Origin: Candidatus Omnitrophota bacterium
Lineage (GTDB): Bacteria > Omnitrophota > Gorgyraeia > Gygaellales > Profunditerraquicolaceae
Length of the DNA: 64,000 bases
NCBI GenBank assembly: GCA_043814315.1
Contig: JBDRKE010000024.1
Span: 4,680-68,679, forward strand
Direction: 5' to 3'
The notes under the pieces are model-generated. The model was not told the DNA's origin, did no database searches, and was given only the letters and a program-made list of their open reading frames with translations. The position numbers were made by a program, and so were the translations under genes. Below are positions 3,069 to 64,000 of the stretch, one piece after another. The stretch's first letter is position 1, and every line of letters begins with the position of its first letter.

Positions 3069-4447
3069 GCCCTGTTCTCTTTTTTACCCGCATGCAGAGT
3101 TTCTGACAAAGAATCGCTCACCTTGGCAATATCCCCTGCTCCGAGGGTCATCACCAGATCCCCAGGCCTAAGGATCTTCAGAATATCTTCAGCGACCTGC
3201 TCTGTAGGCCATAAAAAAACATCTTTATCCGGCGCGTGCTGTTTAATTCTTTCCAAGACGCACTGACTGTTGACTCCTGGGATAGGAAGTTCACTGGCCG
3301 GATAGATATCTGTGAGAATGACCGTATCCGCTAAATCAAAACTCTCCCCAAATTCGCTCAAGAGAAGTTTCGTCCTTGAATAGCGGTGCGGCTGAAAAAC
3401 AACGATAATCCTTTTGCGGCCAAGGTTCTTGACCGCCTCCAGAGTCGCTTTGATCTCCGTCGGATGATGCGCATAATCGTCGATCAGCAGAAAATTTGAA
3501 TCGCAGAATTTAATCTCAAGCCTCCGGCCGGCTCCTTGAAAGCCTTTAAGGGCCCCTCTAATGAACTTTAAGTCTATTTTGAGCTCCAGCCCCAAGGCGA
3601 TAACGGAAAGCGCGTTGGAGATATTATGCCAGCCACCTAAAGCCAGTTCAAATCTATCGATGAACCGGCCCTTTGAAAAACAGTCAAACTCCGACGCCAG
3701 GCCCGCCCGTTTGATATTTTTTGGATAAATATGCGCGGTTTCCCGCAGGCCGAATAACACAAATCTTCCCCCGTACTCCTTAAGCATATTTTTTAAATAA
3801 GCGTCGTCATCACAACAAAAAACGCAACCCTCTTCCTGCGTCTTGTCCAAATATGCCTTAAAAGCTTCCAGCTCCCTGTCAAACTCTTTATAATAATCCA
3901 GGTGCTCCCGGTCTATATTAGTAATAATGGAATAGTCGGGGCGGTAATACAAAAAGGAGCCGTCGGATTCATCTGCTTCTACCACAAAAAATTCACCGCT
4001 GCCCAGGCACGAATTGGTATCGATATTTTTCAAGATCCCTCCGACGGCAACACAGGGCTGTAAGCCCGCTTCCAGTAAAAGCGCGGATATCAAGGAAGCC
4101 GTTGTGGTTTTTCCGTGGCTGCCTGCAACCGTAATAACTTTTTTCCCTTCCATCAGCCGGGCCAAAACCTCTGCCCGCCTTAGAACAGGAAGCCCGAGGC
4201 TCCTGGCCTCCCGCATCTCCGGATTCTCTTCTTTAATCGCCGAGGAATAACAAATCGTTTCAGCTTTGCGTATATTCTGCGGGTGGTGCCCGATAAAAAT
4301 CCTGGCTCCCAATTTTTTAAGCTCTTGGGTGATCCTGGTTTCTTTTAAATCGGATCCGCTTACGCTCGCGCCCTTTCGCAAAAGCAGCTTGGCAATACCG
4401 CTCATCCCGATACCGCCGATACCGATTAAGTGATAGTGCTTATTCAT
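3065..4447 (-). CDS. murC: UDP-N-acetylmuramate--L-alanine ligase
   Basis: The protein starts MNKHYHLIGIGGIGMSG and has GSHGKTT. I place the start at ATG 4447, which overlaps the upstream stop as ATGA. The longer ORF-track start at 4561 is an out-of-family extension. Confidence 0.93.
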   Translation of the reverse strand: MNKHYHLIGIGGIGMSGIAKLLLRKGASVSGSDLKETRITQELKKLGARIFIGHHPQNIRKAETICYSSAIKEENPEMREARSLGLPVLRRAEVLARLMEGKKVITVAGSHGKTTTASLISALLLEAGLQPCVAVGGILKNIDTNSCLGSGEFFVVEADESDGSFLYYRPDYSIITNIDREHLDYYKEFDRELEAFKAYLDKTQEEGCVFCCDDDAYLKNMLKEYGGRFVLFGLRETAHIYPKNIKRAGLASEFDCFSKGRFIDRFELALGGWHNISNALSVIALGLELKIDLKFIRGALKGFQGAGRRLEIKFCDSNFLLIDDYAHHPTEIKATLEAVKNLGRKRIIVVFQPHRYSRTKLLLSEFGESFDLADTVILTDIYPASELPIPGVNSQCVLERIKQHAPDKDVFLWPTEQVAEDILKILRPGDLVMTLGAGDIAKVSDSLSETLHAGKKENRA

Positions 4448-5229: not shown

Positions 5230-6315
5230 TTAATTCAAGGATACTGCGAGTTCTGCCAGTAAATCGCCTGAGTGGTATTCAGGAATCTTGCAATACCCTT
5301 CCCGCATCTGCCTTGTCTTTTCGGGAACACTACTCAATTCCCGCAGGGCCCTTCTTAATCCTTCAGCTTCCAGCTCTTCATCCCTGATAAGAATGGCGCA
5401 CTTGTGTTCCTGCAGCATCTTGGCATTGTAGAGTTGATGTCTATAAGCAAAGGGATAAGGAATGATTATGGCTGGGATCTTAAAATAGATGAGCTCAGCG
5501 ATGGTGGTGGCCCCTGCCCTGCAAATAACCAGATCTGCCATGCTATAGGCGTATTGCATTCCTTTAAGAAAAGGGAACAATTTTACATGCCAATTTAATC
5601 TCCGATAACCGTTTTCTAATACGGGATAATCCTCAATGCCGGCTATATGGATGACCTGGAATGCTAAATCCTCAGGAAGGCCACAGACGGCTTCTAAGAA
5701 ACAGGAATTGATCCTGTGGCTGCCACGGCTGCCACCCGTAACCAATATCGTAAACTTACGCTCCTGGAATCCGAAATAATCCGAAGCCTTATTTCTATCA
5801 ATTCTTTGTAAGCTTTTCCTGATAGGGTTGCCTGTCAGCGTTATCTTGTCCTTATTCACTTTTAAGAATCTCTGTGTTTCAGCGAATGAAATGGCGATTC
5901 TGTCGCAAAACTTAGCCAATAATCTGTTGGCGCGCCCCGGCAAATAGTTCTGTTCATGAATCAATGTCTTAATCCGCGCCAACCAGGCCATCAACACAAG
6001 AGGAATGCTATCCAGACTTCCGAATCCGACGACAGAATCCGGTTTAAATGCCAGAAGGATCCCGAGGCTTTCTACAGACCCCCGGATAAAGTTAAATAGC
6101 GCAATGACATTCTTAAGATTTAAACGTAGACTGATAGGAGTCGTGGAGAGGGTCTTGACTCTATAACTCTGTGCGAGCACATTAAACTCTAAGCATCTTT
6201 TCGGCACAACTAAAAGGGTCTCTATGTCTTTATATTTGTCTTTCAGGGCCTCTAAAAAACCTATGGCCGGGAATATGTGGCCGCCACTGGCCCCTGTCAC
6301 AATCAGGATTCTCAT
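5230..6315 (-). CDS. murG: undecaprenyldiphospho-muramoylpentapeptide beta-N-acetylglucosaminyltransferase
   Basis: Begins MRILIVTGASGGHIFPA. ATG at 6315 is chosen over the ORF-track start at 6456. Confidence 0.9.
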   Translation of the reverse strand: MRILIVTGASGGHIFPAIGFLEALKDKYKDIETLLVVPKRCLEFNVLAQSYRVKTLSTTPISLRLNLKNVIALFNFIRGSVESLGILLAFKPDSVVGFGSLDSIPLVLMAWLARIKTLIHEQNYLPGRANRLLAKFCDRIAISFAETQRFLKVNKDKITLTGNPIRKSLQRIDRNKASDYFGFQERKFTILVTGGSRGSHRINSCFLEAVCGLPEDLAFQVIHIAGIEDYPVLENGYRRLNWHVKLFPFLKGMQYAYSMADLVICRAGATTIAELIYFKIPAIIIPYPFAYRHQLYNAKMLQEHKCAILIRDEELEAEGLRRALRELSSVPEKTRQMREGYCKIPEYHSGDLLAELAVSLN

Positions 6316-7528: not shown

Positions 7529-7706
7529 GTCAAATCCAAATCACAAAGCACAAAACACAAAACAAGCCCAAAGCACAAAATCCAAAATAAAGAATCCTTT
7601 GTTTTGAATTTTGAGTTTTGGCACTTCGACTGCGCTTGAGAGCCAATGGTGAGCGGAGTCGAACCATTGGATTTATTTTGAATTTTGAATTTTGACATTT
7701 GAATTT
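7529..7706. repeat. LC-family long hairpin (copy R2) with a nested NW module
   Basis: The A/C-rich arm is caaatccaaatcacaaagcacaaaacacaaaac... The G/T-rich arm is tttgttttgaattttgagttttg ... atttattttgaattttgaattttgacatttgaattt. The right end is near-identical to the right ends of R4 and R5. Confidence 0.7.
7620..7670. repeat. NW module (ggcacttcgactgcgcttga..ccaatggt-loop-accattgg), nested in R2
   Basis: An 8-bp stem ccaatggt/accattgg. The same module recurs at 59798-59872 with a 24-nt insertion. Confidence 0.7.
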
Positions 7707-9007
7707 ATCTTAGTAGTATTCTTCTTTAGGCTAGAGACCGCTTTCTTAAAGACATTCCCTCTTTCTTCATAGCCGGAAAACATATCAAAGCTTGAACACA
7801 TGGGGGATAATAACACAGAGTCTCCTGGCACGGCCTTTCGATAAGCCTTAAGAACGGCTTCTTCTAAACTGCCGGCTTCTTCAATGGACAGGGTGTCTTT
7901 AAGCACCTGAGCAATTTTCTCCTTTGCCTCGCCGATCAGAATAACTTCTTTTACTTTTTGGCGCGCCTGTCCCAGAATGATCCCGTAATCCACCCCCTTA
8001 TCCTTGCCTCCGGCAATCAAAATGACAGGCGCCTGAATGTTATTTAAGGCCCAGAGGGCCGAATCGGCTGTCGTCGCCTTGGAATCGTTAATGAATCTTA
8101 TATGATTTATTTCCGCCACCTGTTCTAGGCGGTGCTCAATGCCTTTGAAATCTCTAAGGACTCTTAAAACCGATTCCTGATCGATGCCTAGGATCGAACC
8201 CACCGCTACTACGGCAGCCTGATTCGGATTCAATTCTTTTGTTTGTGAAAAAAAGATAGGCCGGGCTTTTGTTTCCTTCGCTAAATCTCTTAATACGGGG
8301 TCATCCTGATTCAGAACCACATAATCGAACTTATCCTGATTCTCAAAGATCCTTTTCTTTGCCTCAAGATACTCCTGCATATTCTTATACCGGTCCAAGT
8401 GGTTACGGGTGAAATTTAAGATCACGGAAATCTTCGGCTTAAACGTGACGATATTCTCCAACTGAAAAGAGCTTACCTCAAGCGTCACAAAATCCTTCTC
8501 TCTTATCCTGCGCACTTCCTGAGAAAAAGGGTTGCCGATATTGCCGCAAATGAACACCTGCTTACCGCTGGATGAAAGGATCCTGCCGATTAACGTGGTG
8601 ACAGTGGTCTTGCCGTTTGAACCTGTAATGGCTATGATTTCGCCGGGACATAAACTCCAGGCAAACTCAATCTCGCTGATGATGAGAGTATTTTCTTGTT
8701 TTGCCCACAGGATGGGCGAGGCATCAGAAGGAACACCCGGAGAAATAATCAATAAATCCTTATCTATTACAAACTCCTGCGAGTGTCTGCCCAACTCCGC
8801 TTTTATGGCTTTTGATTTTAACTTCAATCTATGGGCGCGCGTGCTGTCATCATCCTTATAGTCCGTGACGCTTACATCCGCTCCTAAATCCCAAAGCAGA
8901 TTGACGCAGGCCACCCCTGAGCGGCCCAGGCCTACCACTACCACTTTTTTATTTTTATAATAATCCGTGTTACGCATAGTAAAAATCTGATAAATCTCAA
9001 ATGCCAA
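7673..9007 (-). CDS. murD: UDP-N-acetylmuramoylalanine--D-glutamate ligase
   Basis: VVVVGLGRSG and GSNGKTT motifs. The start is 9007 or ATG 8977. The last ~11 codons (INSNVKIQNSK) are encoded by the R2 repeat arm. Confidence 0.9.
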   Translation of the reverse strand: MAFEIYQIFTMRNTDYYKNKKVVVVGLGRSGVACVNLLWDLGADVSVTDYKDDDSTRAHRLKLKSKAIKAELGRHSQEFVIDKDLLIISPGVPSDASPILWAKQENTLIISEIEFAWSLCPGEIIAITGSNGKTTVTTLIGRILSSSGKQVFICGNIGNPFSQEVRRIREKDFVTLEVSSFQLENIVTFKPKISVILNFTRNHLDRYKNMQEYLEAKKRIFENQDKFDYVVLNQDDPVLRDLAKETKARPIFFSQTKELNPNQAAVVAVGSILGIDQESVLRVLRDFKGIEHRLEQVAEINHIRFINDSKATTADSALWALNNIQAPVILIAGGKDKGVDYGIILGQARQKVKEVILIGEAKEKIAQVLKDTLSIEEAGSLEEAVLKAYRKAVPGDSVLLSPMCSSFDMFSGYEERGNVFKKAVSSLKKNTTKINSNVKIQNSK

Positions 9008-9010
9008 GCA

Positions 9011-9051
9011 CCCTGCCTACCCTGCCTACCGGCAGGCAGGCGGCAGGCAGG
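9011..9051. repeat. GC palindrome, cctgcc family (double length)
   Basis: The sequence is ccctgcctaccctgcctaccggcaggcaggcggcaggcaggc. The A/G differences give G-U pairs only on the minus-strand RNA. Confidence 0.7.
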
Positions 9052-9052
9052 C

Positions 9053-9166
9053 AAATTCCAGATAAATTACAAATCACAAATTCCAAATTACAAACTCATG
9101 AGTTTCGGACATTGTGATTTTGGATTTGGGATTTGTTTGGGATTTGGAATTTGGAAATTGGGATTT
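9053..9166. repeat. LC-family hairpin (copy R3)
   Basis: The aaattcc..caaatcacaaattccaaattacaa arm faces ttgtgattttggatttgggatttgtttgggatttggaatttgg. The centre is a perfect palindrome, aaactcatgagttt (9092-9105). Confidence 0.65.
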
Positions 9167-9189
9167 AACTTATTATTTGTCATTTCGGC

Positions 9190-16695: not shown

Positions 16696-16698
16696 AAA

Positions 16699-16929
16699 CG
16701 AGCACTTGACTTATGGTGCACTAAGTCCGCCATAAGTCAATTCTCCTTTTGTGTATTCCGCTTCTTGTACGAACTTACCCCCCCTCCACCACTTTCAATA
16801 TAGCACAGGTTATAGCGAAAGTGGTGGGGGGTGAATTCGCCCAAACAACTTACGTTCGCTTGCCGCACAAGCGGCACACCGACTGATCCGATAAAGCCGG
16901 GTGCTCGCTCCGTAAGTTGTGGTCTCATC
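16699..16929. repeat. composite palindromic element, copy A (H1 16699-16745; H2 16778-16831; H3 16833-16929 with nested 48-nt insert 16860-16907)
   Basis: It shares modules with 27386-27600, 29944-30090, 32088-32246 and 62140-62195. It occupies the mraZ 5' leader between the operator and the ATG. Confidence 0.8.
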
Positions 16930-16955
16930 CACTTTATTCCACTTATTCCCACTTT
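16929..16955 (-). promoter_or_regulatory. MraZ operator: three direct AAGTGG(G/A) boxes at 10-nt spacing
   Basis: The minus strand reads AAAGTGGGAATAAGTGGAATAAAGTGGAT immediately downstream of the -10. This matches the known MraZ repeat architecture (GTGGN plus a 5-nt spacer). Confidence 0.7.
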
Positions 16956-17994: not shown

Positions 17995-18011
17995 TATCAG
18001 TGTCAACAGTG

Positions 18012-18086
18012 TCAAGATCGGGTCTTGTAATAGATTGAGAAATAATGAGTTGCAAGACCCGATCTTGAGGCGGTTTTGAGGCGGTT
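18012..18086. repeat. K hairpin copy 1 plus tandem tgaggcggtt x2
   Basis: Arms are tcaagatcgggtcttg (18012-18027) and caagacccgatcttga (18053-18068). The tandem 10-mer is at 18066-18086. Confidence 0.8.
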
Positions 18087-27385: not shown

Positions 27386-27600
27386 AAGTGAGTGCACAAT
27401 TTATAGAACGCAATCTTTCGCTTCGTTCAGGATTATCCTAAGAAACGAAATGCCGAAGGATGAAGTGAACATATATTGTATGCTCGAACTTACCCCCCAC
27501 CACTTTCATTATAGAGTAAGCTAAATAAGAAAGTGGTGGGGGGTCAAATTCAGACATACAACTTACGTCATTTCATTCCGTAAGTTGTGTCTTCATTTAA
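27386..27600. repeat. composite palindromic element, copy C (H1-like 27386-27485; H2 27493-27543; H3 27545-27600)
   Basis: It fills the whole ribD-stop to ribE-start interval. The H2 arms are ccccccaccactttc/gaaagtggtgggggg, and the H3 stem is acaacttacg/cgtaagttgt. Confidence 0.8.
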
Positions 27601-29943: not shown

Positions 29944-30090
29944 TTAATGAGCGCTTGACTTACGAACATGCGAGTAAGTCAATGCGCGAATTAAGTTCGG
30001 ACATAAATTTATGTTCACTTGCCGCAGAAGCGGCACACCGGCTGTTCCGATACAGCCGGGTGCTCGTTCCGTAAGTTTAGTCCTCACTTA
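29944..30090. repeat. composite palindromic element, copy D (H1 29944-29994; H3 29992-30090 with nested insert 30019-30066)
   Basis: It spans exactly from the ribH TAA (30088-30090) to the nusB ATG (29941-29943). H1 is bounded by ttaatgagcgc...gcgcgaattaa. Confidence 0.85.
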
Positions 30091-30555: not shown

Positions 30556-30626
30556 TTTGACCTCCTCGCATAATCTTCACGTATAACAGTGGATTATACG
30601 TGATTACAGTGATTTTAAGATAGATT

Positions 30627-30651
30627 AAAGCGATTAAGCATTAATCGCTTT
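30627..30651. other. perfect 11-bp hairpin in the 248-nt ribBA-ribH spacer
   Basis: aaagcgattaa-gca-ttaatcgcttt. There is no U-tract after it on the sense strand. Confidence 0.4.
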
Positions 30652-30803
30652 GCTTGACAACCCTTATCATGGTTCCGGCTTGATATTGTTTTCTGCATCA
30701 TAGCCTCATTTGGCCTCTTTTATGGCGCAAAACTCCTTTCTTTATCACTGGAATCTCCCCTTTAATTTCTGAAATCATAGGCAAGCATTAGTGTATGCCT
30801 TTG

Positions 30804-32015
30804 TTAATCAATATTCAAATCGTGTCCCAGCTTTTCCTTCTTTGTCTTAAGATATTGGTAATTTAAAGGATTAGGTTGGATCTGTAAAGGCAGGCGTTCA
30901 ATAACGCGAAGGCCATACCCTTCCAGCCCGACGATCTTACGGGGATTGTTCGTCAGGAGCCTGATAAACTTTATCCCAAGGTCTACGAGAATCTGTGCGC
31001 CTATACCGTAATCCCTAAGGTCTGCGCTGTGCCCTAGGGCCTCATTAGCCTCAACCGTATCAAGGCCCTTATCTTGTAACCTATAGGCTTTGATTTTATC
31101 CACGAGGCCGATACCCCGGCCTTCCTGGTTCATATAAAGAATAACTCCTTTTTTTTCTTTTCCGATCATCCTCATGGCTTCGTTAAGCTGCCTGCCGCAA
31201 TCGCAACGCAAAGACCCAAACACATCTCCCGTCAGGCATTCGGAGTGCACACGCACTAACACCCCTTTTTCATCCAAATCCCCCATCACTATGGCCACGT
31301 GAACCTTGAGATTCGTTAAATCGCGATAAAGTACGAGACTAAATTTACCGAACTCTGTCGGAAGACTCGTCTCGGCCACTCTCTCTATTAATTTTTCAGA
31401 ACGCCTGCGGTACTCGATTAAGTCAGCGATGGAACATATCTTGAGCGAATGCTGCCTGGAAAAATGGAATAATTGGCTCATACGTGCCATGCTTCCGTCA
31501 TCGTTCATAATCTCACAAATGACTCCCGCAGGATACAGGTCAACCAATTTCATCAAATCAACAGCTGCTTCTGTATGTCCTGCCCTGACCAAAACTCCCC
31601 CCTTTCGTGCCCTTAAAGGGAAGATATGTCCTGGCCGAACCAAATCTTCTCGTTGAGTCTGGGGACAAATTAAGACTTCTATGGTCCTGGCTCTGTCATA
31701 GACAGAGATACCGGTGGTTATTCCTTTGGCAGCATCCGCCGACATCATCCAGGCTGTGGCAAAAGGGTCCTCTGGCGAAGAGCTTATCTTATCTTTTAAC
31801 ATCGGCTCTAATTCAAGCTGGCGTAATCGCTGCTCTTCCATAGGAACACAGATCAGGCCTCTGCCGAATTTAGCCATGAAATTAACATGTTCCGGCTTAA
31901 CAAAAGAAGCAGCCATAACCAAATCCCCTTCATTCTCACGGTCTTCATCATCTACTACTATGACTATCTTACCTTGTTTTAAATCCTGCAATATTTCTGA
32001 AATGGAATGGAACAT
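30804..32015 (-). CDS. ribBA: bifunctional 3,4-dihydroxy-2-butanone-4-phosphate synthase / GTP cyclohydrolase II
   Basis: 403 aa with DDEDRENEGDL (DHBPS) and ECLTGDVFGSLRCDCG (GCHII). Confidence 0.95.
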   Translation of the reverse strand: MFHSISEILQDLKQGKIVIVVDDEDRENEGDLVMAASFVKPEHVNFMAKFGRGLICVPMEEQRLRQLELEPMLKDKISSSPEDPFATAWMMSADAAKGITTGISVYDRARTIEVLICPQTQREDLVRPGHIFPLRARKGGVLVRAGHTEAAVDLMKLVDLYPAGVICEIMNDDGSMARMSQLFHFSRQHSLKICSIADLIEYRRRSEKLIERVAETSLPTEFGKFSLVLYRDLTNLKVHVAIVMGDLDEKGVLVRVHSECLTGDVFGSLRCDCGRQLNEAMRMIGKEKKGVILYMNQEGRGIGLVDKIKAYRLQDKGLDTVEANEALGHSADLRDYGIGAQILVDLGIKFIRLLTNNPRKIVGLEGYGLRVIERLPLQIQPNPLNYQYLKTKKEKLGHDLNID

Positions 32016-32026
32016 GACTTCTCCCG

Positions 32027-32057
32027 AAAATAAACTGCCCGAAGATGACCTTCGGGC
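32027..32057 (-). terminator. intrinsic terminator, expression platform of the FMN riboswitch
   Basis: The sense strand reads gcccgaag-gtcat-cttcgggc followed by agtttatttt. Its 5' arm can alternatively pair with the riboswitch P1 5' strand cttcgggg. Confidence 0.7.
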
Positions 32058-32087
32058 ATAAAGCTTTAATCTTCTCTCATCTGGACT

Positions 32088-32167
32088 TTAATGAGCACTA
32101 AACTTGCGAGCCGCCTGCCTGCCTTTAGGCATGTAGGCGAGTGCGAGTAAGTTTATGTGCGAATTAA
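32088..32167. repeat. H1 module copy E, inside the riboswitch
   Basis: ttaatgagcac...gtgcgaattaa has the same ends as H1 at 29944-29994. A cctgcc-type insert lies at the tip (32110-32138). Confidence 0.75.
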
Positions 32168-32195
32168 CCATCGGCTCTGGAATCTCGCCAGATCT

Positions 32196-32246
32196 CCCCC
32201 CACCACTTTCGCTTTTAACCTGTGCTATATCGAAAGTGGTGGGGGG
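32196..32246. repeat. H2 module copy E, inside the riboswitch (P4-hairpin position)
   Basis: ccccccaccactttcg / cgaaagtggtgggggg. The loop is the reverse complement of the loop in copy A. Confidence 0.8.
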
Positions 32247-32303
32247 TCGCGGGCTAAACCGCCGGTCAGGAATTTCACCTTGCCCCGAAGATTATTGAAC
32301 ACA

Positions 32304-32331
32304 ATTATAACATGAAATCTTTACTTGTCAA
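32304..32331 (-). promoter_or_regulatory. sigma70-type promoter of the rib operon
   Basis: The minus strand reads TTGACA-16 nt-TATAAT, ending about 10 nt before the riboswitch P1. Confidence 0.7.
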
Positions 32332-32353
32332 CATAATTAGATGCATCTATAAT
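32325..32353 (+). promoter_or_regulatory. divergent promoter for the cinA-like gene (probably a leaderless transcript)
   Basis: The plus strand reads TTGTCA-17 nt-TATAAT, and the ATG at 32360 lies 6 nt after the -10. The -35 hexamers of the two divergent promoters overlap. Confidence 0.5.
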
Positions 32354-32359
32354 ATAAAT

Positions 32360-32830
32360 ATGATACAACGCATTGTCAGCCAGATACATAAACTTCTGAT
32401 AAAAAATAAAAAAACTATGGCTGTGGCAGAATCCTGCACCGGTGGCTTGCTCTCTAGTTTTCTGACCCATTCCTCTGGCAGTTCACGATACTTTCAGTTG
32501 GGGGTAGTTGCTTACAGCAATAATATGAAGAGCACTCTTCTACAAGTACCTCCTAAGATGATTGAACAAAAAGGCGCCGTCTCCGAGCTTATCGCCAGAA
32601 GGATGGCTAAATCTGTGAGAGAATTAGCTGGGACAGACTTCGCAATAGCTATCACCGGCATTGCCGGTCCCACCGGCGGCACTCCGCAAAAACCCATAGG
32701 CACCGTCTTTATCGCCGTGAGCGCTAAGAATAAAACCATTTGCGAAGAATTCCATTTTACCGGTAACCGAACTACCATAAGAAATAAATCGGCCCTAAAA
32801 GCTTTGGAATTACTAAAGAGTTTCTTCTAA
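32360..32830 (+). CDS. CinA C-terminal-domain protein / nicotinamide-nucleotide amidohydrolase PncC-like
   Basis: TMAVAESCTGGLL..GVVAYSN motif. I prefer the start at 32360 because the longer ORF-track start (32312) overlaps the rib promoter. Confidence 0.75.
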   Translation: MIQRIVSQIHKLLIKNKKTMAVAESCTGGLLSSFLTHSSGSSRYFQLGVVAYSNNMKSTLLQVPPKMIEQKGAVSELIARRMAKSVRELAGTDFAIAITGIAGPTGGTPQKPIGTVFIAVSAKNKTICEEFHFTGNRTTIRNKSALKALELLKSFF

Positions 32831-32834
32831 AATT

Positions 32835-32922
32835 CAAGATCGGGTCTTGGAATATCTTGATAGACAACAAGTTACAAGACAAGTTACAAGACCCGATCTT
32901 GCGAGAGGGATCTTGCGAGAGG
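32835..32922. repeat. K hairpin copy 2 with tandem duplications at both borders of the right arm
   Basis: Arms are caagatcgggtcttg (32835-32849) and caagacccgatcttg (32887-32901). aagttacaagac x2 lies at 32869-32892, and gatcttgcgagagg x2 at 32895-32922. Confidence 0.8.
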
Positions 32923-35771: not shown

Positions 35772-36751
35772 CGGTTGATATTGAGGCCTTCTTTCGTGAT
35801 CAAGATATTCTTTAACACCTGGCCCCTTCTGCCTAAATTTGAAAACAGCTGGCCGTTGACCTCAAGTTCCACAGCGGAAGCATTACCTATGGAAAGTTCG
35901 ATTTTTTCTTTAGCCTGCCAGCTTTCGAATCGCCCCTTCTCCAGGGTCCTTTGAAACACGACCTTCCCGTCCACTTTAACGTAAACCCAGCAATTCTCTC
36001 TGGTCCGAAGCCCCAGCCTGATACCGGAATTCGTTTCTTTCTTAGCCGTCGACGGAGGCTGGGGGGCCGCAGGTGCAAATGAACCTCTTGCCGCGGCAAC
36101 TACGCCGGGTTCTTTAACGGCCCTGGGCGTGCGGCGTGCTGAGGTTTGAACAGGGGCGGATTTCTTTCGCGCTAAATACGCTTTGCGCTTAGAAGATATA
36201 AACTTTCCAAAATTAAAAAAAACAAAAGCCACAAACAGCAGTCCGATAACAAGTATCGCGCCCCTTTTGATTGCCTGAGCATGAACCTTGAGCCCTCTTA
36301 TTTTCTCAACGGCAATTTTTAAGTAAGAAGCTGTCTTTTGGAATAGAATTTCGAGTCTCTCCTTAAGTTTCTGCTGAGGTTTTTCCTGAGGTTTCAGCTG
36401 AGGCTTCTCTTGGGGTTTCTGCTGAGATTTTTCCTGGAGTTTCTGTCGAGGTTTTTCCTGAGGTTTCTCCTGGAGGGAAGACTTTTTTTTCTCTTTGACT
36501 GCGACAATGGGCGGTTTCGCTTGAGGCCTTGCTTCTTTATGCTCCGAAATGTAATCCTTCGGGTCAACCCCTAAGAAATTGCAATATATCTTCAAGAAAC
36601 CTTTTAAATAGACCGGACTAAGATTAGTCAGCCCATCCCCTTCGATAGCCTTCAATATATTTATATGAATCTTGGTTTTCTTATGCACCTCTTCCAGATG
36701 AATGCCCTTTTCCAGGCGGATTTTTTTAAGCCCTTCTTGCGGCTGAGTCAT
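35768..36751 (-). CDS. RodZ-like protein (HTH + TM + DUF4115-like C-terminal domain)
   Basis: N-terminal HTH (LEEVHKKTKIHINILKAIE), a low-complexity linker, a TM, and a C-terminal beta domain (CWVYVKVDGKVVF...). Confidence 0.55.
   Translation of the reverse strand: MTQPQEGLKKIRLEKGIHLEEVHKKTKIHINILKAIEGDGLTNLSPVYLKGFLKIYCNFLGVDPKDYISEHKEARPQAKPPIVAVKEKKKSSLQEKPQEKPRQKLQEKSQQKPQEKPQLKPQEKPQQKLKERLEILFQKTASYLKIAVEKIRGLKVHAQAIKRGAILVIGLLFVAFVFFNFGKFISSKRKAYLARKKSAPVQTSARRTPRAVKEPGVVAAARGSFAPAAPQPPSTAKKETNSGIRLGLRTRENCWVYVKVDGKVVFQRTLEKGRFESWQAKEKIELSIGNASAVELEVNGQLFSNLGRRGQVLKNILITKEGLNINR
36368..36475. repeat. nine tandem 12-nt units inside the rodZ-like gene
   Basis: Units tttctgctgagg/tttttcctgagg... 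encode (P/L/S)Q(E/Q)K tetrapeptides on the minus strand. Confidence 0.85.
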
Positions 36752-45495: not shown

Positions 45496-45544
45496 GGTTT
45501 ATTATATTTAGCGAGCCCCCTGTCCTATAAATTTTCAAACTTTC

Positions 45545-45617
45545 TCAAGATCGGGTCTTGTAACTCATTATTTACCAAACTATTTCAAGACCCGATCTTA
45601 AATTTCTTAAATTTCTG
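45545..45617. repeat. K hairpin copy 3 plus tandem aaatttct(t/g) x2
   Basis: Arms are tcaagatcgggtcttg (45545-45560) and caagacccgatctta (45586-45600). The loop is about 80% identical to the reverse complement of the K1 loop. Confidence 0.8.
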
Positions 45618-53335: not shown

Positions 53336-53492
53336 AAATGACAAAGCACAAGGTTATCAATAAATTCAAATACCAAAGCACAAAGCACAAATATCAAAAC
53401 AGAGAATTTCTTGTTTTGAATTTTGGGTTTTGCCTGCCTGCCGGCAAGGCAGGGATTTATTTTGAATTTTGAATTTTGTCATTTGTGCTTTA
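53336..53492. repeat. LC-family hairpin (copy R4) with a nested cctgcc palindrome
   Basis: The left arm aaattcaaataccaaagcacaaa is identical to the R5 left arm. The right end atttattttgaattttgaattttgtcatttg is shared with R2. Confidence 0.7.
53432..53454. repeat. GC palindrome, cctgcc family
   Basis: gcctgcctgccggcaaggcaggg lies at the apex region of R4. Confidence 0.7.
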
Positions 53493-53494
53493 AG

Positions 53495-54688
53495 TTAAAG
53501 GCCTAAACGCTGCGCCGCAACATAAGTGTCTTTATCGCCTCTTCCCGAAAGGCAGACAATAATGATAGATTTCTTATTTATTTTGCCTTTTAACTTTTTC
53601 AAATAAAAAATAGCATGCGCCGGCTCAAGGGCAGGGATAATCCCTTCTGTTTCCGAGAGCAGCTTAAAACCTTCCAACGCTTCTTCGTCCTTTACGGCGA
53701 CGTACCGGGCTCTGCCTATTTTCTTATAGTAGGCGTGTTCCGGACCAACGCCTGGATAATCCAGGCCCGGGGCTATAGAGTGCGCATTTTTGATTTGGCC
53801 GAATCTATCCTCTAAAAGGTCGGACTTTGAACCGTGCAAAACCCCCGGCTTTCCCGCAACTAAACTTGCCGAATGCCTACCGGAATGAAGCCCTGCTCCT
53901 GCAGCCTCAACCCCGATCATCCTCACCTTTCTATCATTAAAGAACGGATGGAACAACCCCATGGCATTACTGCCTCCTCCCACGCAAGCCACCAGATAAT
54001 CAGGAAGCCGGTTTTCTTTCTTTAAAATTGCGCCTCTGGCTTCCTTGCCAATCACCGACTGAAAATCGCGCACCATCTCCGGGTAAGGATGGGGCCCTGC
54101 CACAGAACCTATAATATAATGCGTGTGACGCACATGCGTAACCCAATCCCTTAAGGCTTCAGTCATGGCATCCTTGAGTGTCTTTGTTCCGTTTTTAACC
54201 GGGATGACGCGGCTGCCTAATAACTTCATGCGATAAACGTTAAGGCTTTGCCTTTTTATATCTTCCTCACCCATATAAATATCGCACGTTAAACCAAACA
54301 TCGCGGCCACCGCTGCCGTAGCGACGCCGTGCTGGCCCGCTCCGGTCTCTGCGATGATGCGAGACTTTTTCATCCGAAGCGCCAGCAAAACCTGACCCAG
54401 GGTATTGTTGATTTTATGCGCGCCTGTATGCAGCAGGTCTTCCCTTTTCAGATAGACCCTCACCCCGCCTAAGAAACAACTCAAATTCTTCGCAAAATAC
54501 AAAGACGTGGGCCGGCCCGCATACTCTTTAAGATAATAATCCAGCTGACGGTTAAATTTTCTATCCCGCCTGGCTTTTCTGTATTCCTGCTCCAGTTCGT
54601 CAAGGGCATAAATGAGAGTCTCCGGTACAAATCGCCCCCCGAACTCCCCAAAATGCCCAGTCTTATCCGGTAACCTCTTTTTCATCAT
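53495..54688 (-). CDS. trpB: tryptophan synthase beta chain
   Basis: [13 protein letters not shown] and HTGAHKINN motifs. I place the start at ATG 54688 with the SD gaggag; the ORF-track GTG at 54772 is an extension. Confidence 0.95.
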
Positions 54689-54834
54689 AAATAACTCCTC
54701 TATTCTTAGCGGCCTGCCTAGTCTGTGCTTTCGCGGGGACGTTCGTTTTGCCCCTGCGAGGCAAAACTTCACTCGTCTCGGCTGCGTCGTCTTTTCCCAT
54801 GCTCAAAGTAAAGATAGGGAAAGGATGCCCGCTC

Positions 54835-54854
54835 CCTGCCTGCCGGCAGGCAGG
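54835..54854. repeat. GC palindrome, cctgcc family (perfect 20-mer)
   Basis: cctgcctgccggcaggcagg. Confidence 0.75.
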
Positions 54855-54926
54855 CTTGCCTCCACGCCCCGCTCAATCACAGCCAAGCCATCCCGCTAAA
54901 AAATTACCTAATCGATGACTTTATTA

Positions 54927-58282: not shown

Positions 58283-58408
58283 AAAATTCAAATACCAAAG
58301 CACAAAATCCAAAATAAACTCAAAGCACAAAATCTAAAACTAAAAAGGTTTGTTTAGAATTTTTGATTTTGGATTTGTTTTGTGCTTTGGATTTTGTCAT
58401 TTGAATTT
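58283..58408. repeat. LC-family hairpin (copy R5) in the murA-trpG spacer
   Basis: The arm aaattcaaataccaaagcacaaaatccaaaataaa... faces ...ggatttgttttgtgctttggattttgtcatttgaattt. There is an internal ~26-nt direct duplication. Confidence 0.7.
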
Positions 58409-58411
58409 ACA

Positions 58412-59674
58412 TTATTCTTTTTCCCTCCAGATCTTGGCCCCTAATCTTCGTAATTTTTCATCGATGTTTTCATATCCGCGCTCCAGATGGTAAATCCTAG
58501 ATACGGTAGTTTTCCCGAGAGCTGCCAGACCTGCCAATATAAGACATGCGGAAGCGCGTAAATCCGAGGCCATCACCGGTGCGCCGGACAACCTCTTGAC
58601 GCCCCCGACAATGGCATGCGGCCCTTCTCTTTGAATATGGGCACCCATACGATTAAGCTCGGCAACATGCATGAACCTATCCGGATAAACCTTCTCCGTA
58701 ATGACACTGATGCCTTGCGTTACGCTCATCAAAGCCATAACCTGTGCTTGCATATCCGTAGGAAAACCGGGATAGGGCAATGTCGTGACGTTCACGGGCT
58801 TTAGTTTCTTTTTGGCACGTACGCGCACAGAACTATCCGTTCTATTGATGCCAGCACCTGCTTCTTCCAACTTGTCTATAAGGGCTCCCAGATGATGGAA
58901 AAGGACATTTTTGATGAAAATGTCTCCCCGCGTAATCAAAGCTGCAATCATCAAGGTACCTGCCTCTATTCTATCGGGGATGATGGCGTGTGCGGCTCCA
59001 TGCAAGTGCCTGACACCTTCTATTTCTATGATAGGTGTGCCATGGCCTTTTATTTTAGCTCCCATCTTAATCAAAAATTCCGCTAAATCTACAACCTCCG
59101 GCTCGCAGGCCGCGGATTCAATGAGCGTCTTACCCTGCGCCAAGACCGCTGCCATCATCACATTATCTGTTGCTAAAACCGATGACCCATAAATCCCGCC
59201 CAGATAGATGTGATTGCCTTTGAGTCTATCTGCCTTTGCCACGACATAACCTGAATCGACATCAACCTCAGCACCTAGAGCTTTTAATCCTTTGATATGC
59301 AAATCCACAGGCCTAATCCCTATGACGCATCCGCCCGGAAGAGAAACTTTGGCTTTCTTAAATTTTGCAAGAAGCGGGCCTAAGACACAGAAGGAAGCAC
59401 GCATGGTAGAAACGAGCTTATAATCGGCGATGCAATTTGCGCTTCTGCCCGACATTACGCTAATGATGCCTTTGTCAAATTCAACGGCCTTTCCCAAAGA
59501 GCGCAAGATCTTAACCATGGTGCCGGTATCCCGCAGATGAGGCACGCCCTTAATGACACAGGCATCATCGGTCAATAAAGTTGCCGCTAAAATGGGAAGC
59601 ACGGCATTCTTGGCACCTGATACCGTCACCTCTCCCGATAATCTCACGCCCCCTTCTATCATCAGTTTATCCAT
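58412..59674 (-). CDS. murA: UDP-N-acetylglucosamine 1-carboxyvinyltransferase
   Basis: 420 aa starting MDKLMIEGG..L.GEV.VSGAKNA, with an active-site region around PGGC. Confidence 0.95.
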   Translation of the reverse strand: MDKLMIEGGVRLSGEVTVSGAKNAVLPILAATLLTDDACVIKGVPHLRDTGTMVKILRSLGKAVEFDKGIISVMSGRSANCIADYKLVSTMRASFCVLGPLLAKFKKAKVSLPGGCVIGIRPVDLHIKGLKALGAEVDVDSGYVVAKADRLKGNHIYLGGIYGSSVLATDNVMMAAVLAQGKTLIESAACEPEVVDLAEFLIKMGAKIKGHGTPIIEIEGVRHLHGAAHAIIPDRIEAGTLMIAALITRGDIFIKNVLFHHLGALIDKLEEAGAGINRTDSSVRVRAKKKLKPVNVTTLPYPGFPTDMQAQVMALMSVTQGISVITEKVYPDRFMHVAELNRMGAHIQREGPHAIVGGVKRLSGAPVMASDLRASACLILAGLAALGKTTVSRIYHLERGYENIDEKLRRLGAKIWREKE

Positions 59675-59702: not shown

Positions 59703-59917
59703 GAAATTCCAAATCACAAATCCCAAATCGCAAACAAATCCCAATACCGAAATCCCAATGTCCGAAATAAAAGATTTATTTCGGAATTTTGCAAATTGGC
59801 ACTTCGACTACGCTTGAACGCCAATGGTGAGCGGAGTCCTGAGCCTGTCGAAGGGCGAAGCCGAACCATTGGAATTTATAATTTGTTTGTAATTTGTGTA
59901 TTGGGATTTGGGATTTT
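59703..59917. repeat. LC-family hairpin (copy R6) with a nested NW module and a small inner hairpin
   Basis: The arm gaaattccaaatcacaaatcccaaatcgcaaacaaatccc... faces aatttataatttgtttgtaatttgtgtattgggatttgggattttt. The inner hairpin is tccgaaataaa/tttatttcgga (59761-59785). Confidence 0.7.
59798..59872. repeat. NW module copy 2 (with a 24-nt insertion at 59839-59862)
   Basis: ggcacttcgactacgcttgaacgccaatggtgagcggagtc[ctgagcctgtcgaagggcgaagcc]gaaccattgg, compared with 7620-7670. Confidence 0.75.
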
Positions 59918-62139: not shown

Positions 62140-62195
62140 TAAGTTCGGACATAAATTTACGTTCACTTTCGTTCCGTAAATTTAGTCCTCACTTA
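62140..62195. repeat. H3 module, minimal copy F, starting at the rho stop codon
   Basis: taagttcggacataaatttacg-ttcactttcgttc-cgtaaatttagtcctcactta. It has the same ends as H3 in copy D but lacks the 48-nt nested insert. Confidence 0.8.
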
Positions 62196-63461: not shown

Positions 63462-63531
63462 AATTTTCCCGCATTCTACGGGTTAAAAATTGATCCCGAG
63501 TATCCAGCTATTGCTTCTGTGATACGAGGGA
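63462..63531 (-). promoter_or_regulatory. L-motif copy 2, directly upstream of the rho SD
   Basis: Hairpin A spans 63494-63531 (tcccgag-tatc...gata-cgaggga) and hairpin B 63468-63482 (cccgcattctacggg). Confidence 0.55.
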
Positions 63532-63605
63532 CTAATTTTCCTGCTTTTTACTGGTCAGCAAATTATCCTAAAGCATCCATCATTCCCTTACATGATGCGT
63601 AGGAT

Positions 63606-63673
63606 ATAATTTTCCCGCATTCTACGGGCCTGCAGATCCCGAGCACCGTCTATTGCTTATCAGGTGCGAGGGA
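63606..63673 (-). promoter_or_regulatory. L-motif copy 3, distal part of the rho leader, overlapping the coaE stop
   Basis: Hairpin A spans 63637-63673 (tcccgag-cacc...ggtg-cgaggga) and hairpin B 63614-63628. The coaE stop codon lies in the hairpin A loop. Confidence 0.55.
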
Positions 63674-64000
63674 CAAGTTCAGCCTTTTCCAAATATCCTT
63701 TACCTGTCTTTTTGTTTTTTTCAGACTACCGTTGTTATCTATGATAAAATCCGCCAACCGTATCTTTTGGGATTGGGAGATCTGACTCTTTACCCTGCCT
63801 AACACGCTCTTAAAACTCAGGCAATCTCTTTTCTTTATTCTTTCTAACTGTTTGGCCTTGGCGATCTTTACAACCGCCAGCTCCTCAACGATAGTTTTTA
63901 ATCCCGCCTCCAGCAAGAGCGGGGCGTCCAAAATAACAACCTTTGACCGAGAAAGCTCTATCTTTTTTTTAATGATTCTGATGATCGGGGGGTGTAAAAT
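63650..64000 (-). CDS. coaE: dephospho-CoA kinase, C-terminal part (open at window end)
   Basis: ...VVILDAPLLLEAGL... is the CoaE pattern. The frame stays open to the window edge. Confidence 0.8.
   Translation of the reverse strand: MLHPPIIRIIKKKIELSRSKVVILDAPLLLEAGLKTIVEELAVVKIAKAKQLERIKKRDCLSFKSVLGRVKSQISQSQKIRLADFIIDNNGSLKKTKRQVKDIWKRLNLSLAPDKQ

Follow-up and report, generated by a model that had tools for sequence, protein, structure and literature searches.

The FMN riboswitch of the rib operon leader

The stretch of DNA analysed here, called the window, is a 64-kb part of a metagenome-assembled genome (MAG) of Candidatus Omnitrophota. Its minus strand carries a flavin mononucleotide (FMN, or RFN) riboswitch in which two peripheral sites, helix P4 and loop L6, are occupied by long hairpins that belong to families of dispersed palindromic repeats. 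The riboswitch is flanked by cinA, on the plus strand, and by ribBA, the first gene of an operon with the order ribBA-ribH-nusB-PHP-ribD-ribE, and this synteny is kept in relatives. RibBA of the window is 100% identical to a MAG protein at NCBI (MFH1458342.1), and its next relatives include that of Omnitrophica WOR_2 SM23_72. In the leader, a promoter is followed by the aptamer, a terminator, a Shine-Dalgarno sequence (SD) and ribBA, that is, by the expression platform and rib gene that accompany members of the Rfam family RF00050 (Table 1).

Anchored dissection shows that all core blocks of the aptamer are present and colinear (UCUUCGGGGCAAGG, ACCGGCGGU..AGCCCGCGA, GAUCUGG..CCAGAGCCGAUGG and AGUCCAGAUGAGAGAAGA). 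The helix that closes it, P1, is 8 bp long (UAAUCUUC/GAAGAUUA, 32294-32287 and 32074-32067). The true 3′ part of the aptamer comes after the insert in L6, reading CCGAUGG-[80 nt]-AGUCCAGAUGAGAGAAGAUUA, and closes P1 with UAAUCUUC. The structure of minimum free energy (-91.4 kcal/mol) contains P1, P2, P3, P4, P5 and the hairpin of the insert. When P1 and P6 are enforced, the energy is -89.3 kcal/mol, a cost of about 2 kcal/mol, with the inserted unit stacked on P6; the six-helix architecture can thus form. For the whole leader, the fold has a z-score of -5.7.

An earlier note on this DNA had called the FMN assignment solid. The core blocks and the terminator on which it relied are all there, but a match at the gathering level is not: at gathering thresholds, a scan of the whole window with Rfam returned one tRNA only and no RF00050, and in a permissive scan of 31950-32400 RF00050 reached 65.1 bits (E 1.3e-14), the gathering score being 66.2. 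The alignment places the 51-nt hairpin in the P4 loop, as the note had anticipated, but its final third goes wrong, since that part of the model is matched to sequence within the 80-nt insert. The score falls below gathering because this insert derails the 3′ alignment. The shortfall is therefore an alignment artefact, although the threshold as such is not reached. The leaders of nine orthologs, among ten fetched loci with RibBA identities of 77-87%, score 66.4-104.5 bits on the same model; one of them (L242, 4464-4578) passes marginally at 66.4 bits, with a wrong 3′ end as in the window. Similar riboswitches are probably under-annotated in Omnitrophota.

Conservation supports the assignment. 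When L2, P4 and L6 are cut out, the core of the window's aptamer is 88-95% identical to the nine orthologous aptamers, whereas the third codon positions of ribBA are 47-63% identical to those of the same relatives. Thus, the aptamer core is under strong purifying selection. Downstream of it, the terminator hairpin (32058-32036; -16.5 kcal/mol) is followed by a U-tract, and the 5′ strand of P1 can pair with the 5′ arm of the terminator in an antiterminator duplex of -15.4 kcal/mol. This is the classical layout of an FMN OFF-switch: with FMN bound, P1 would close and the terminator would form, while without FMN the 5′ P1 strand would be free to pair with the terminator arm.

Hairpins of dispersed families in P4 and L6

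The coordinates and sequences given in the earlier note all hold. Exactly at the position of P4 there is a hairpin of 51 nt, whose 16-bp stem, CCCCCCACCACTTTCG/CGAAAGTGGTGGGGGG, is perfect. P4 is the normal variable hairpin of the aptamer, and only its content is unusual, since it is a copy of a repeat, here called H, that occurs three times in the window: in P4, in the ribF-mraZ spacer (copy A) and in the ribD-ribE spacer (copy B). This recurrence, pointed out before, is far from random, as the arms of the H stem have 6 matches in the window versus 0.52 expected, and 6 matches were reached in none of 100 shuffles. P4 is 94% identical over 47 nt, loop included, to copy A (16786-16831) and 90% identical over 52 nt to metagenome copies of H, and its loop agrees with the family consensus at 16 of 21 positions. 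One loop variant, GCACAGGTTA, is common to P4 and copy A and appears in no metagenome loop, which speaks for a recent copying event within the genome. With mraZ and ribF both lying on the minus strand, the orientation of copy A is opposite to that of transcription, as had been judged from its loop. It sits just downstream of ribF, another flavin gene, which is probably a coincidence. Rfam offers no credible family for H or its associated units, either at gathering thresholds over the whole window or in the permissive scan of 31950-32400; matches over H to mir-4433, MIR5304 and others were rejected as chance matches to any long GC hairpin.

A search pattern covering the whole H hairpin, with 26 specified bases, found H in 112 metagenome contigs, a sample that is biased by the requirement for exact stems; 99 of its 106 non-redundant copies are intergenic. 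(Fetched loci and contigs are labelled here by L-numbers, such as L001 or L145.) Several of these contigs encode orthologs of window proteins with 65-85% identity and, therefore, come from related organisms. The loop has 21 nt in 86 of 117 copies, with the consensus AATATAGCGTAGGCTAAATAC or its reverse complement, and its orientation with respect to transcription is unbiased (32 versus 20, not significant). The triplets that flank H (YC-core-GR) are direct repeats, TAA/TAA or TTA/TTA, in 51 copies versus 7 with inverted ones (p = 2e-9). Empty junctions, GAATTAAGTTC, exist too, also in the window's own ribH-nusB spacer (GAAT-TAA-GTTC). Because of these direct flanks and empty junctions, H can be said, on sequence grounds, to behave like a very small insertion element that duplicates 3 bp.

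H is also part of larger composite elements, in which a stop-overlapping TAAGTGAGG is followed by hairpin unit 1 and GAACTTAYC-[H]-GRTTAATTC, and then by unit 2 (GCAC ATAAACTTAYG...CGTAAGTTTA GTGC), TCATTAA, an optional SD and ATG. The 5′ end carries TAA or TGA in two frames, and the spacer is filled exactly from stop to start. With such ends next to the following start codon, the elements might fill operon spacers and leave the operon unbroken. Composites are found in both orientations, but the order unit 1, H, unit 2 in the sense direction is favoured by 31 versus 9 (p = 7e-4). Composite elements or their units are located at 16696-16930, 27398-27592, 29944-30087 and 62140-62195 of the window, and also in L126-L237. 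The repeat-filled spacers of the window measure 144-195 nt, whereas in orthologs the corresponding genes overlap or are only 1-22 nt apart; for instance, the empty site AAA TAA TGT ATG in L242 corresponds to AAA TAA [GTGAGG...GCTCAT] TAA ATG in the window. A stop-to-start composite of this kind appears to be undescribed. Like MITEs (miniature inverted-repeat transposable elements), H and the units are multi-copy, small, non-coding and palindromic, with unit ends that read TTAAT/ATTAA or TAAGT/ACTTA, and target-site duplications with filled and empty sites are seen for the dispersed H copies and the operon spacers.

The copy in P4 differs in this respect. A TAA insertion signature was sought at its borders and none was found, the flanks being GCGA and AGAUC, so that the MITE-like signature is missing from P4. 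Since the TAA flanks are lacking, the private loop variant is common with copy A, and the loop orientation differs between lineages (A in the window, B in L240 and L002), P4 seems to exchange sequence with the genomic pool of H through recombination or gene conversion between identical stems. The P4 copy has probably arrived, or been refreshed, in that way and not by standard insertion.

The stem of H was also met outside Omnitrophota. When a 14-base arm, GAAAGTGGTGGNGGG, was used to probe the genome collection, it gave chance matches across all phyla and was rejected as a probe, with only L042 being informative. At 3131-3182 of this locus, from bacterium UBP18_UBA7526, the same 15-bp H stem encloses an unrelated loop and has no unit flanks. 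It lies directly after a stop codon and is followed by a T-run, as a terminator would be.

The second hairpin is one complete unit 2. The earlier note had placed an 80-nt palindrome bounded by TTAA in the loop of the last hairpin, and it indeed lies in L6, between the P6 strands UGG (32170-32168) and CCA (32084-32082) and in the favoured sense orientation. TAA direct repeats stand on both sides of it (GGT-TAA-[...]-TAA-AGTCC in the window and GG-TAA-[...]-TAA-AGTCC in L239), although the flanks of units are partly palindromic and a target duplication is not fully separable from an extended terminal inverted repeat. The arms are identical at 26 of 26 and 24 of 25 nt to those of the unit that abuts an H copy in L145 and L126, and the arm matches to metagenome copies reach an E of 1e-8. 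A profile made from metagenome arms only matches the L6 insert at E 0.0015, and it also matches the ribF-mraZ, ribD-ribE and ribH-nusB spacers and the solo unit of the window. The recurrence of the insert's ends at 29944-29994, which had been noticed before, is weak alone (26 nt, 88%, E 0.01) and is secured by the copies in L145, L126 and L131 and by the arm profile. The CCTGCC-type insert described at the tip of the palindrome is also there, with 30 nt (32141-32112) where L145 has 7. Related hairpins are found at 9020-9050 and 54826-54855 of the window and in the L2 insert of four orthologs.

In the Rfam consensus, L6 reads UAuAGU. The TAA...TAA flanks of the L239 insert imply a loop UAAAGU before insertion, which matches this consensus. 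This suggests that L6 is a hotspot because its conserved loop offers TAA, the target triplet of the element. An insertion there would leave U...AAGU around the new helix, which may be likened to the P3a extension of the pseudo-symmetric L3.

Table 1. Positions of the riboswitch, its inserts and related repeats in the window
Feature	Position	Strand	Details
Promoter of the rib leader	32304..32331	-	TTGACA, 16-nt spacer, TG-TATAAT; 12/12 consensus, extended -10; conserved in orthologous leaders
FMN (RFN) riboswitch aptamer	32067..32294	-	228 nt from P1 to P1; RF00050, core anchors, orthologs, fold
P4 hairpin, copy of H	32196..32246	-	YC-CCCCACCACTTTC-21 nt-GAAAGTGGTGGGG-GR, without the usual TAA-duplicated flanks
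L6 insert, one complete unit 2	32088..32167	-	TTAAT-TC-GCAC...GTGC-TC-ATTAA; imperfect palindrome of 80 nt, TTAA-bounded
Tip hairpin of the L6 unit	32112..32141	-	30 nt, CCTGCC/GGCAGG-type; 7-nt tip in L145, similar tip in L131
Intrinsic terminator	32027..32058	-	UGCCCGAAGG UCA UCUUCGGGCA + UUUAUUUU; terminator scan; conserved in orthologs
ribBA (DHBP synthase / GTP cyclohydrolase II)	30804..32015	-	first gene of the regulated operon
H-less composite in the ribH-nusB spacer	29944..30087	-	from TAA stop to ATG; unit 1 30006-30086, empty junction GAATTAAGTTC, unit 2 29944-29994
Composite of unit, H copy B and unit in the ribD-ribE spacer	27398..27592	-	copy B 27493-27543; 1-8 nt or overlapping genes in orthologs
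H copy A in the ribF-mraZ spacer	16782..16831		most similar to the P4 copy; part of a composite with units at about 16696-16750 and 16847-16927
Solo unit 1 hairpin	62140..62195		TAAGT-TC-GGAC...GTCC-TC-ACTTA; arm profile

Turnover of inserts among orthologous riboswitches

The window was compared with nine orthologous riboswitches, which gives ten lineages in all (Table 2). As the earlier note had proposed to check, the inserts at L2, P4 and L6 differ among the relatives or are missing there. Presence, absence and replacement of inserts are restricted to these three sites, where lengths range over 7-27, 21-67 and 3-113 nt, respectively. In 8 of the 10 lineages, L6 is extended by 41-113 nt, and the cores are still conserved. 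L193 and L231 have a 3′ junction that differs from that of the other orthologs, and they were dissected with Rfam and by direct reading.

Table 2. Lengths of three peripheral sites in the aptamers of ten lineages
Lineage	L2 (nt)	P4 (nt)	L6 (nt)	Content
Window	7	52	80	H in P4, unit 2 in L6
L001	27	33	46	
L238	27	36	41	decayed H
L002	26	55	3	decayed H
L005	27	36	56	
L239	7	67	50	
L240	7	51	4	pristine H, loop in the other orientation
L242	7	21	113	
L193	7	21	48	
L231	7	25	83	

The L6 insert of L239 is a copy of another dispersed module, which is found again in the ribBA-ribH spacer of L239 itself (95% identity over 40 nt) and beside H in L204 (91% over 44 nt). For the P4 inserts of L001, L005 and L238 and the L6 insert of L238, no copies were found elsewhere in the 0.84-Mb pool; thus, a link to a repeat family can be made for some of the inserts only. 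Composites are also seen between the terminator of the riboswitch and the start codon of ribBA, with an exact H in L193 (8320-8485) and with a variant of H in L231 (about 6170-6290, minus strand). Therefore, the repeats colonise the region of the expression platform as well as the aptamer.

Origin of the inserts and its meaning

The locus is best explained as an FMN riboswitch that controls the rib operon and two of whose peripheral elements are, quite probably, passengers drawn from palindromic repeats that populate intergenic regions throughout the lineage. Riboswitches are known to accept additional stem-loops, termed "variable insertions", at specific sites, and a helix sometimes breaks up T-loops of the FMN class (PMC2258182). 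In L6, one complete hairpin unit would have entered at the TAA triplet that the consensus UAuAGU naturally offers, leaving TAA direct repeats on both sides and stacking as an extension of P6. In P4, the variable hairpin would have been replaced by the 51-nt H; this should be unproblematic because L4 of the FMN aptamer is solvent exposed (PMC3201879). As the P4 copy has no TAA duplication and has the private loop variant in common with copy A, it was probably re-copied recently by recombination or gene conversion with another genomic copy of H. Selection would keep insertions only where the extra helix points away from the ligand-binding junction, which would result in the patchwork of inserts at L2, P4 and L6 and nowhere else. 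The response to FMN would then be retained, and the inserts themselves would be neutral.

The earlier note had left two directions of transfer: either palindromes invaded tolerated loops of a riboswitch or hairpins of the riboswitch were copied elsewhere. The existence of dispersed families, the turnover among orthologs and the conservation of the riboswitch favour the former, and the note's own test, that the hairpins might be unique to this locus, came out the other way, with H in 112 metagenome contigs and the L6 unit beside H copies elsewhere. An origin of the H family from the P4 hairpin is very improbable. It would fit with the fact that H abuts the P3 and P5 core without any stem remnant, that the native P4 stems of relatives are likewise C-rich in the 5′ strand and G-rich in the 3′ strand, and that there is no target duplication at the P4 copy. 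Nevertheless, in a neighbour-joining tree of RibBA (midpoint-rooted and of a single protein, hence indicative only), the lineages with a short P4, L193, L231 and L242, group apart from those with H in P4, yet L193 carries an exact H elsewhere. In addition, the window's P4 copy is the only one with riboswitch flanks among the 106 non-redundant copies, none of the 112 metagenome copies having them, and the differing loop orientations in P4 are expected if the pool feeds P4. Because short-P4 lineages branch apart, L193 nevertheless has H, and a single copy is riboswitch-flanked, H would have entered P4, and not the reverse. An artefact, either a mis-assembly at repeats or a chance likeness of GC-rich hairpins, is scarcely credible. 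MAG contigs can be chimeric at repeats, but here the riboswitch core lies on both sides of each insert and is colinear with ten independently assembled orthologs, and chance is excluded by the shuffles and the 26-base pattern for H and by the arm matches at E 1e-8 for the unit.

Several observations do weigh against passengers in a working riboswitch. The aptamer remains 1.1 bits short of the RF00050 gathering score; its L5 T-loop (32181-32190) reads CGAGA instead of the UGAAA or UAAGA of the consensus and of relatives; and an 80-nt insert in L6, whose contacts with L2 and P2 are tertiary contacts of the FMN aptamer (PMC3201879, PMC12219259), could weaken folding. Moreover, the P4 copy lacks the TAA duplication of ordinary H insertions, no transposase for H or the units was identified (this concerns the 64-kb window only, in which no transposase search was made), and the orientation bias of the composites means that the repeats are not purely neutral at the RNA level. 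The first three points could be read as signs of a relic in which the L6 insertion broke the L2-L6 contact and that is on its way to loss. This is highly unlikely, however, since the core is 88-95% conserved without lesions in the junction blocks, P1, terminator, antiterminator and a perfect promoter are intact, and relatives with L6 inserts of 41-113 nt keep equally conserved cores. Thus, an extension of L6, although less expected than one of P4, is evidently compatible with long-term retention of the element, as 8 of 10 lineages carry one with conserved cores. As an observation apart, C at the first T-loop position is also seen in L2 of L240, L242 and L193.

The orientation bias also speaks for another explanation, functional co-option, according to which H and the units serve in many operon spacers as recognition or processing sites for an RNase III-like enzyme or an RNA-binding protein, or as pause or timing spacers, and were recruited into the riboswitch for additional control or for a longer co-transcriptional decision window between P5 and the 3′ strand of P1. 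The exact filling of spacers from stop codon to start codon or SD, the sense orientation of the L6 unit, some L6 extension in 8 of 10 lineages and the terminator-like occurrence of an identical H stem in a different candidate phylum (L042) would agree with it as well. On the other hand, close relatives have inserts of unrelated sequence at a given site, two lineages have no L6 extension at all, H-type P4 hairpins decay in L002 and L238, the loop orientation of H is unbiased, and the TAA duplications, like the empty sites, are signs of insertion and not of designed modules. Co-option is therefore rather unlikely, and insertion of intergenic repeats at tolerated sites remains the preferred explanation. 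A more specific form of it can be offered tentatively: it is possible, if somewhat doubtful, that H and the units are nested mini insertion elements that target TAA, insert at stop codons and colonise tolerated RNA loops in which UAA is exposed.

Some known systems resemble this one. Rickettsia palindromic elements are selfish palindromes that survive in functional genes at structurally tolerated positions, much like H and the units. They are about 100-150 bp long, lie mostly in frame in protein genes, and belong to another lineage with unrelated sequences; we know of no case in a riboswitch. REPINs likewise have hairpin-forming units with conserved arms and a variable tip. Repetitive extragenic palindromes (REPs) and the bacterial interspersed mosaic elements (BIMEs) that they form are, in one description (PMC2817692), short imperfect palindromes in mosaic intergenic arrays of alternating orientation. 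Unlike REPs, which have none, the H system shows a direct duplication of 3 nt (TAA/TTA), and no GTAG-type head motif was recognised in H or the units. With bacterial MITEs, such as Correia, ERIC, Nezha and Chunjie, the repeats have in common that they are non-autonomous, palindromic, multi-copy and intergenic or within operons, and that they show target duplications and filled or empty sites between relatives (PMC3184786). By contrast, H (51 nt) and the units (55-80 nt) are much shorter than these MITEs, which measure 100-400 bp, and they form nested modules. What they duplicate is TAA/TTA, as opposed to the 9 bp of Chunjie, and their ends, which contain stop codons in two frames, adjoin the start codon that follows.

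As regards riboswitches, the window's element agrees with RF00050 in its six-helix aptamer, junction blocks, rib-operon context and terminator/antiterminator platform, and members of the class have been documented with stem-loops inserted at particular peripheral sites (PMC2258182). It differs in that its additional stem-loops can be identified as copies of repeats dispersed in the genome and in that L6, a fixed loop of 6 nt in the Rfam consensus, has 41-113 nt in 8 of 10 lineages. The nearest documented case is a BOX element in the trp leader of Streptococcus pneumoniae (Croucher et al. 2011, PMC3049150), a small modular repeat that is co-transcribed in a riboswitch leader whose regulation is apparently retained. 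The BOX element sits between two complete T-box riboswitches, however, and not inside one aptamer; it can be compared directly with the composites that L193 and L231 carry between terminator and start codon. In the open-access literature, no precedent was found for a REP or MITE that occupies helices or loops of an aptamer, nor any description of repeats in Omnitrophota, and reviews of MITEs merely speculate that these could form riboswitches.

The window holds further repeats besides those of the H system. A separate palindromic family (TCAAGATCGGGTCTTG...CAAGACCCGATCTTG) is present at 18005-18076, 32830-32907 and 45537-45605, with one copy just downstream of cinA, beside the riboswitch locus. 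Low-complexity palindromic arrays (AAATCCCAAATCACAAA / TTTGGGATTTGG) lie at 388-429, 7531-7721, 9060-9181, 53337-53505, 58284-58423 and 59704-59916, some of them adjoining the CCTGCC/GGCAGG hairpins at 9020-9050 and 54826-54855. The ribBA-ribH spacer (30556-30803) has 248 nt, versus 15 nt in L001 and L002, and is not built of H or unit modules; it holds a hairpin (AAGCGATTAATGCTTAATCGCTT) and promoter-like motifs. A tandem repeat with a 12-nt period and at least 8 overlapping copies (36346-36477) is probably within a coding region. Finally, AATTTTCCCGCATTCTACGGG occurs three times in 63462-63680 at a spacing of 72-74 nt, with a longer repeat of about 146 nt around two of the copies. A clustered regularly interspaced short palindromic repeat (CRISPR) array at 63462-63628 was rejected on reading the sequence, which has a longer unit and lacks a structure of repeats and spacers.

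The "variable insertions" of riboswitches have hitherto been treated as stem-loops that are specific to lineages and lack an explanation. In the present case, hairpin repeats that are mobile or recombine can be recognised as their source, and filled and empty states are visible among close relatives. The inserts also provide a natural tolerance map of the FMN aptamer, an antibacterial drug target, with large insertions even in L6, which Rfam models as fixed, and they indicate that annotation by covariance models misses riboswitches with long L6 inserts. At the same time, a stereotyped system of intergenic repeats running from stop to start is exposed in a phylum of which little is known, and this system may merit a separate study. 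If the targeting of TAA were true, the leaders of this clade would be a natural insertion-mutagenesis map of the FMN aptamer, and some inserts, for instance the near-universal extension of L6, may be co-opted. In that case, variable insertions and expansion segments, in riboswitches and in other structured RNAs, would generally have mobile hairpins as one of their sources.

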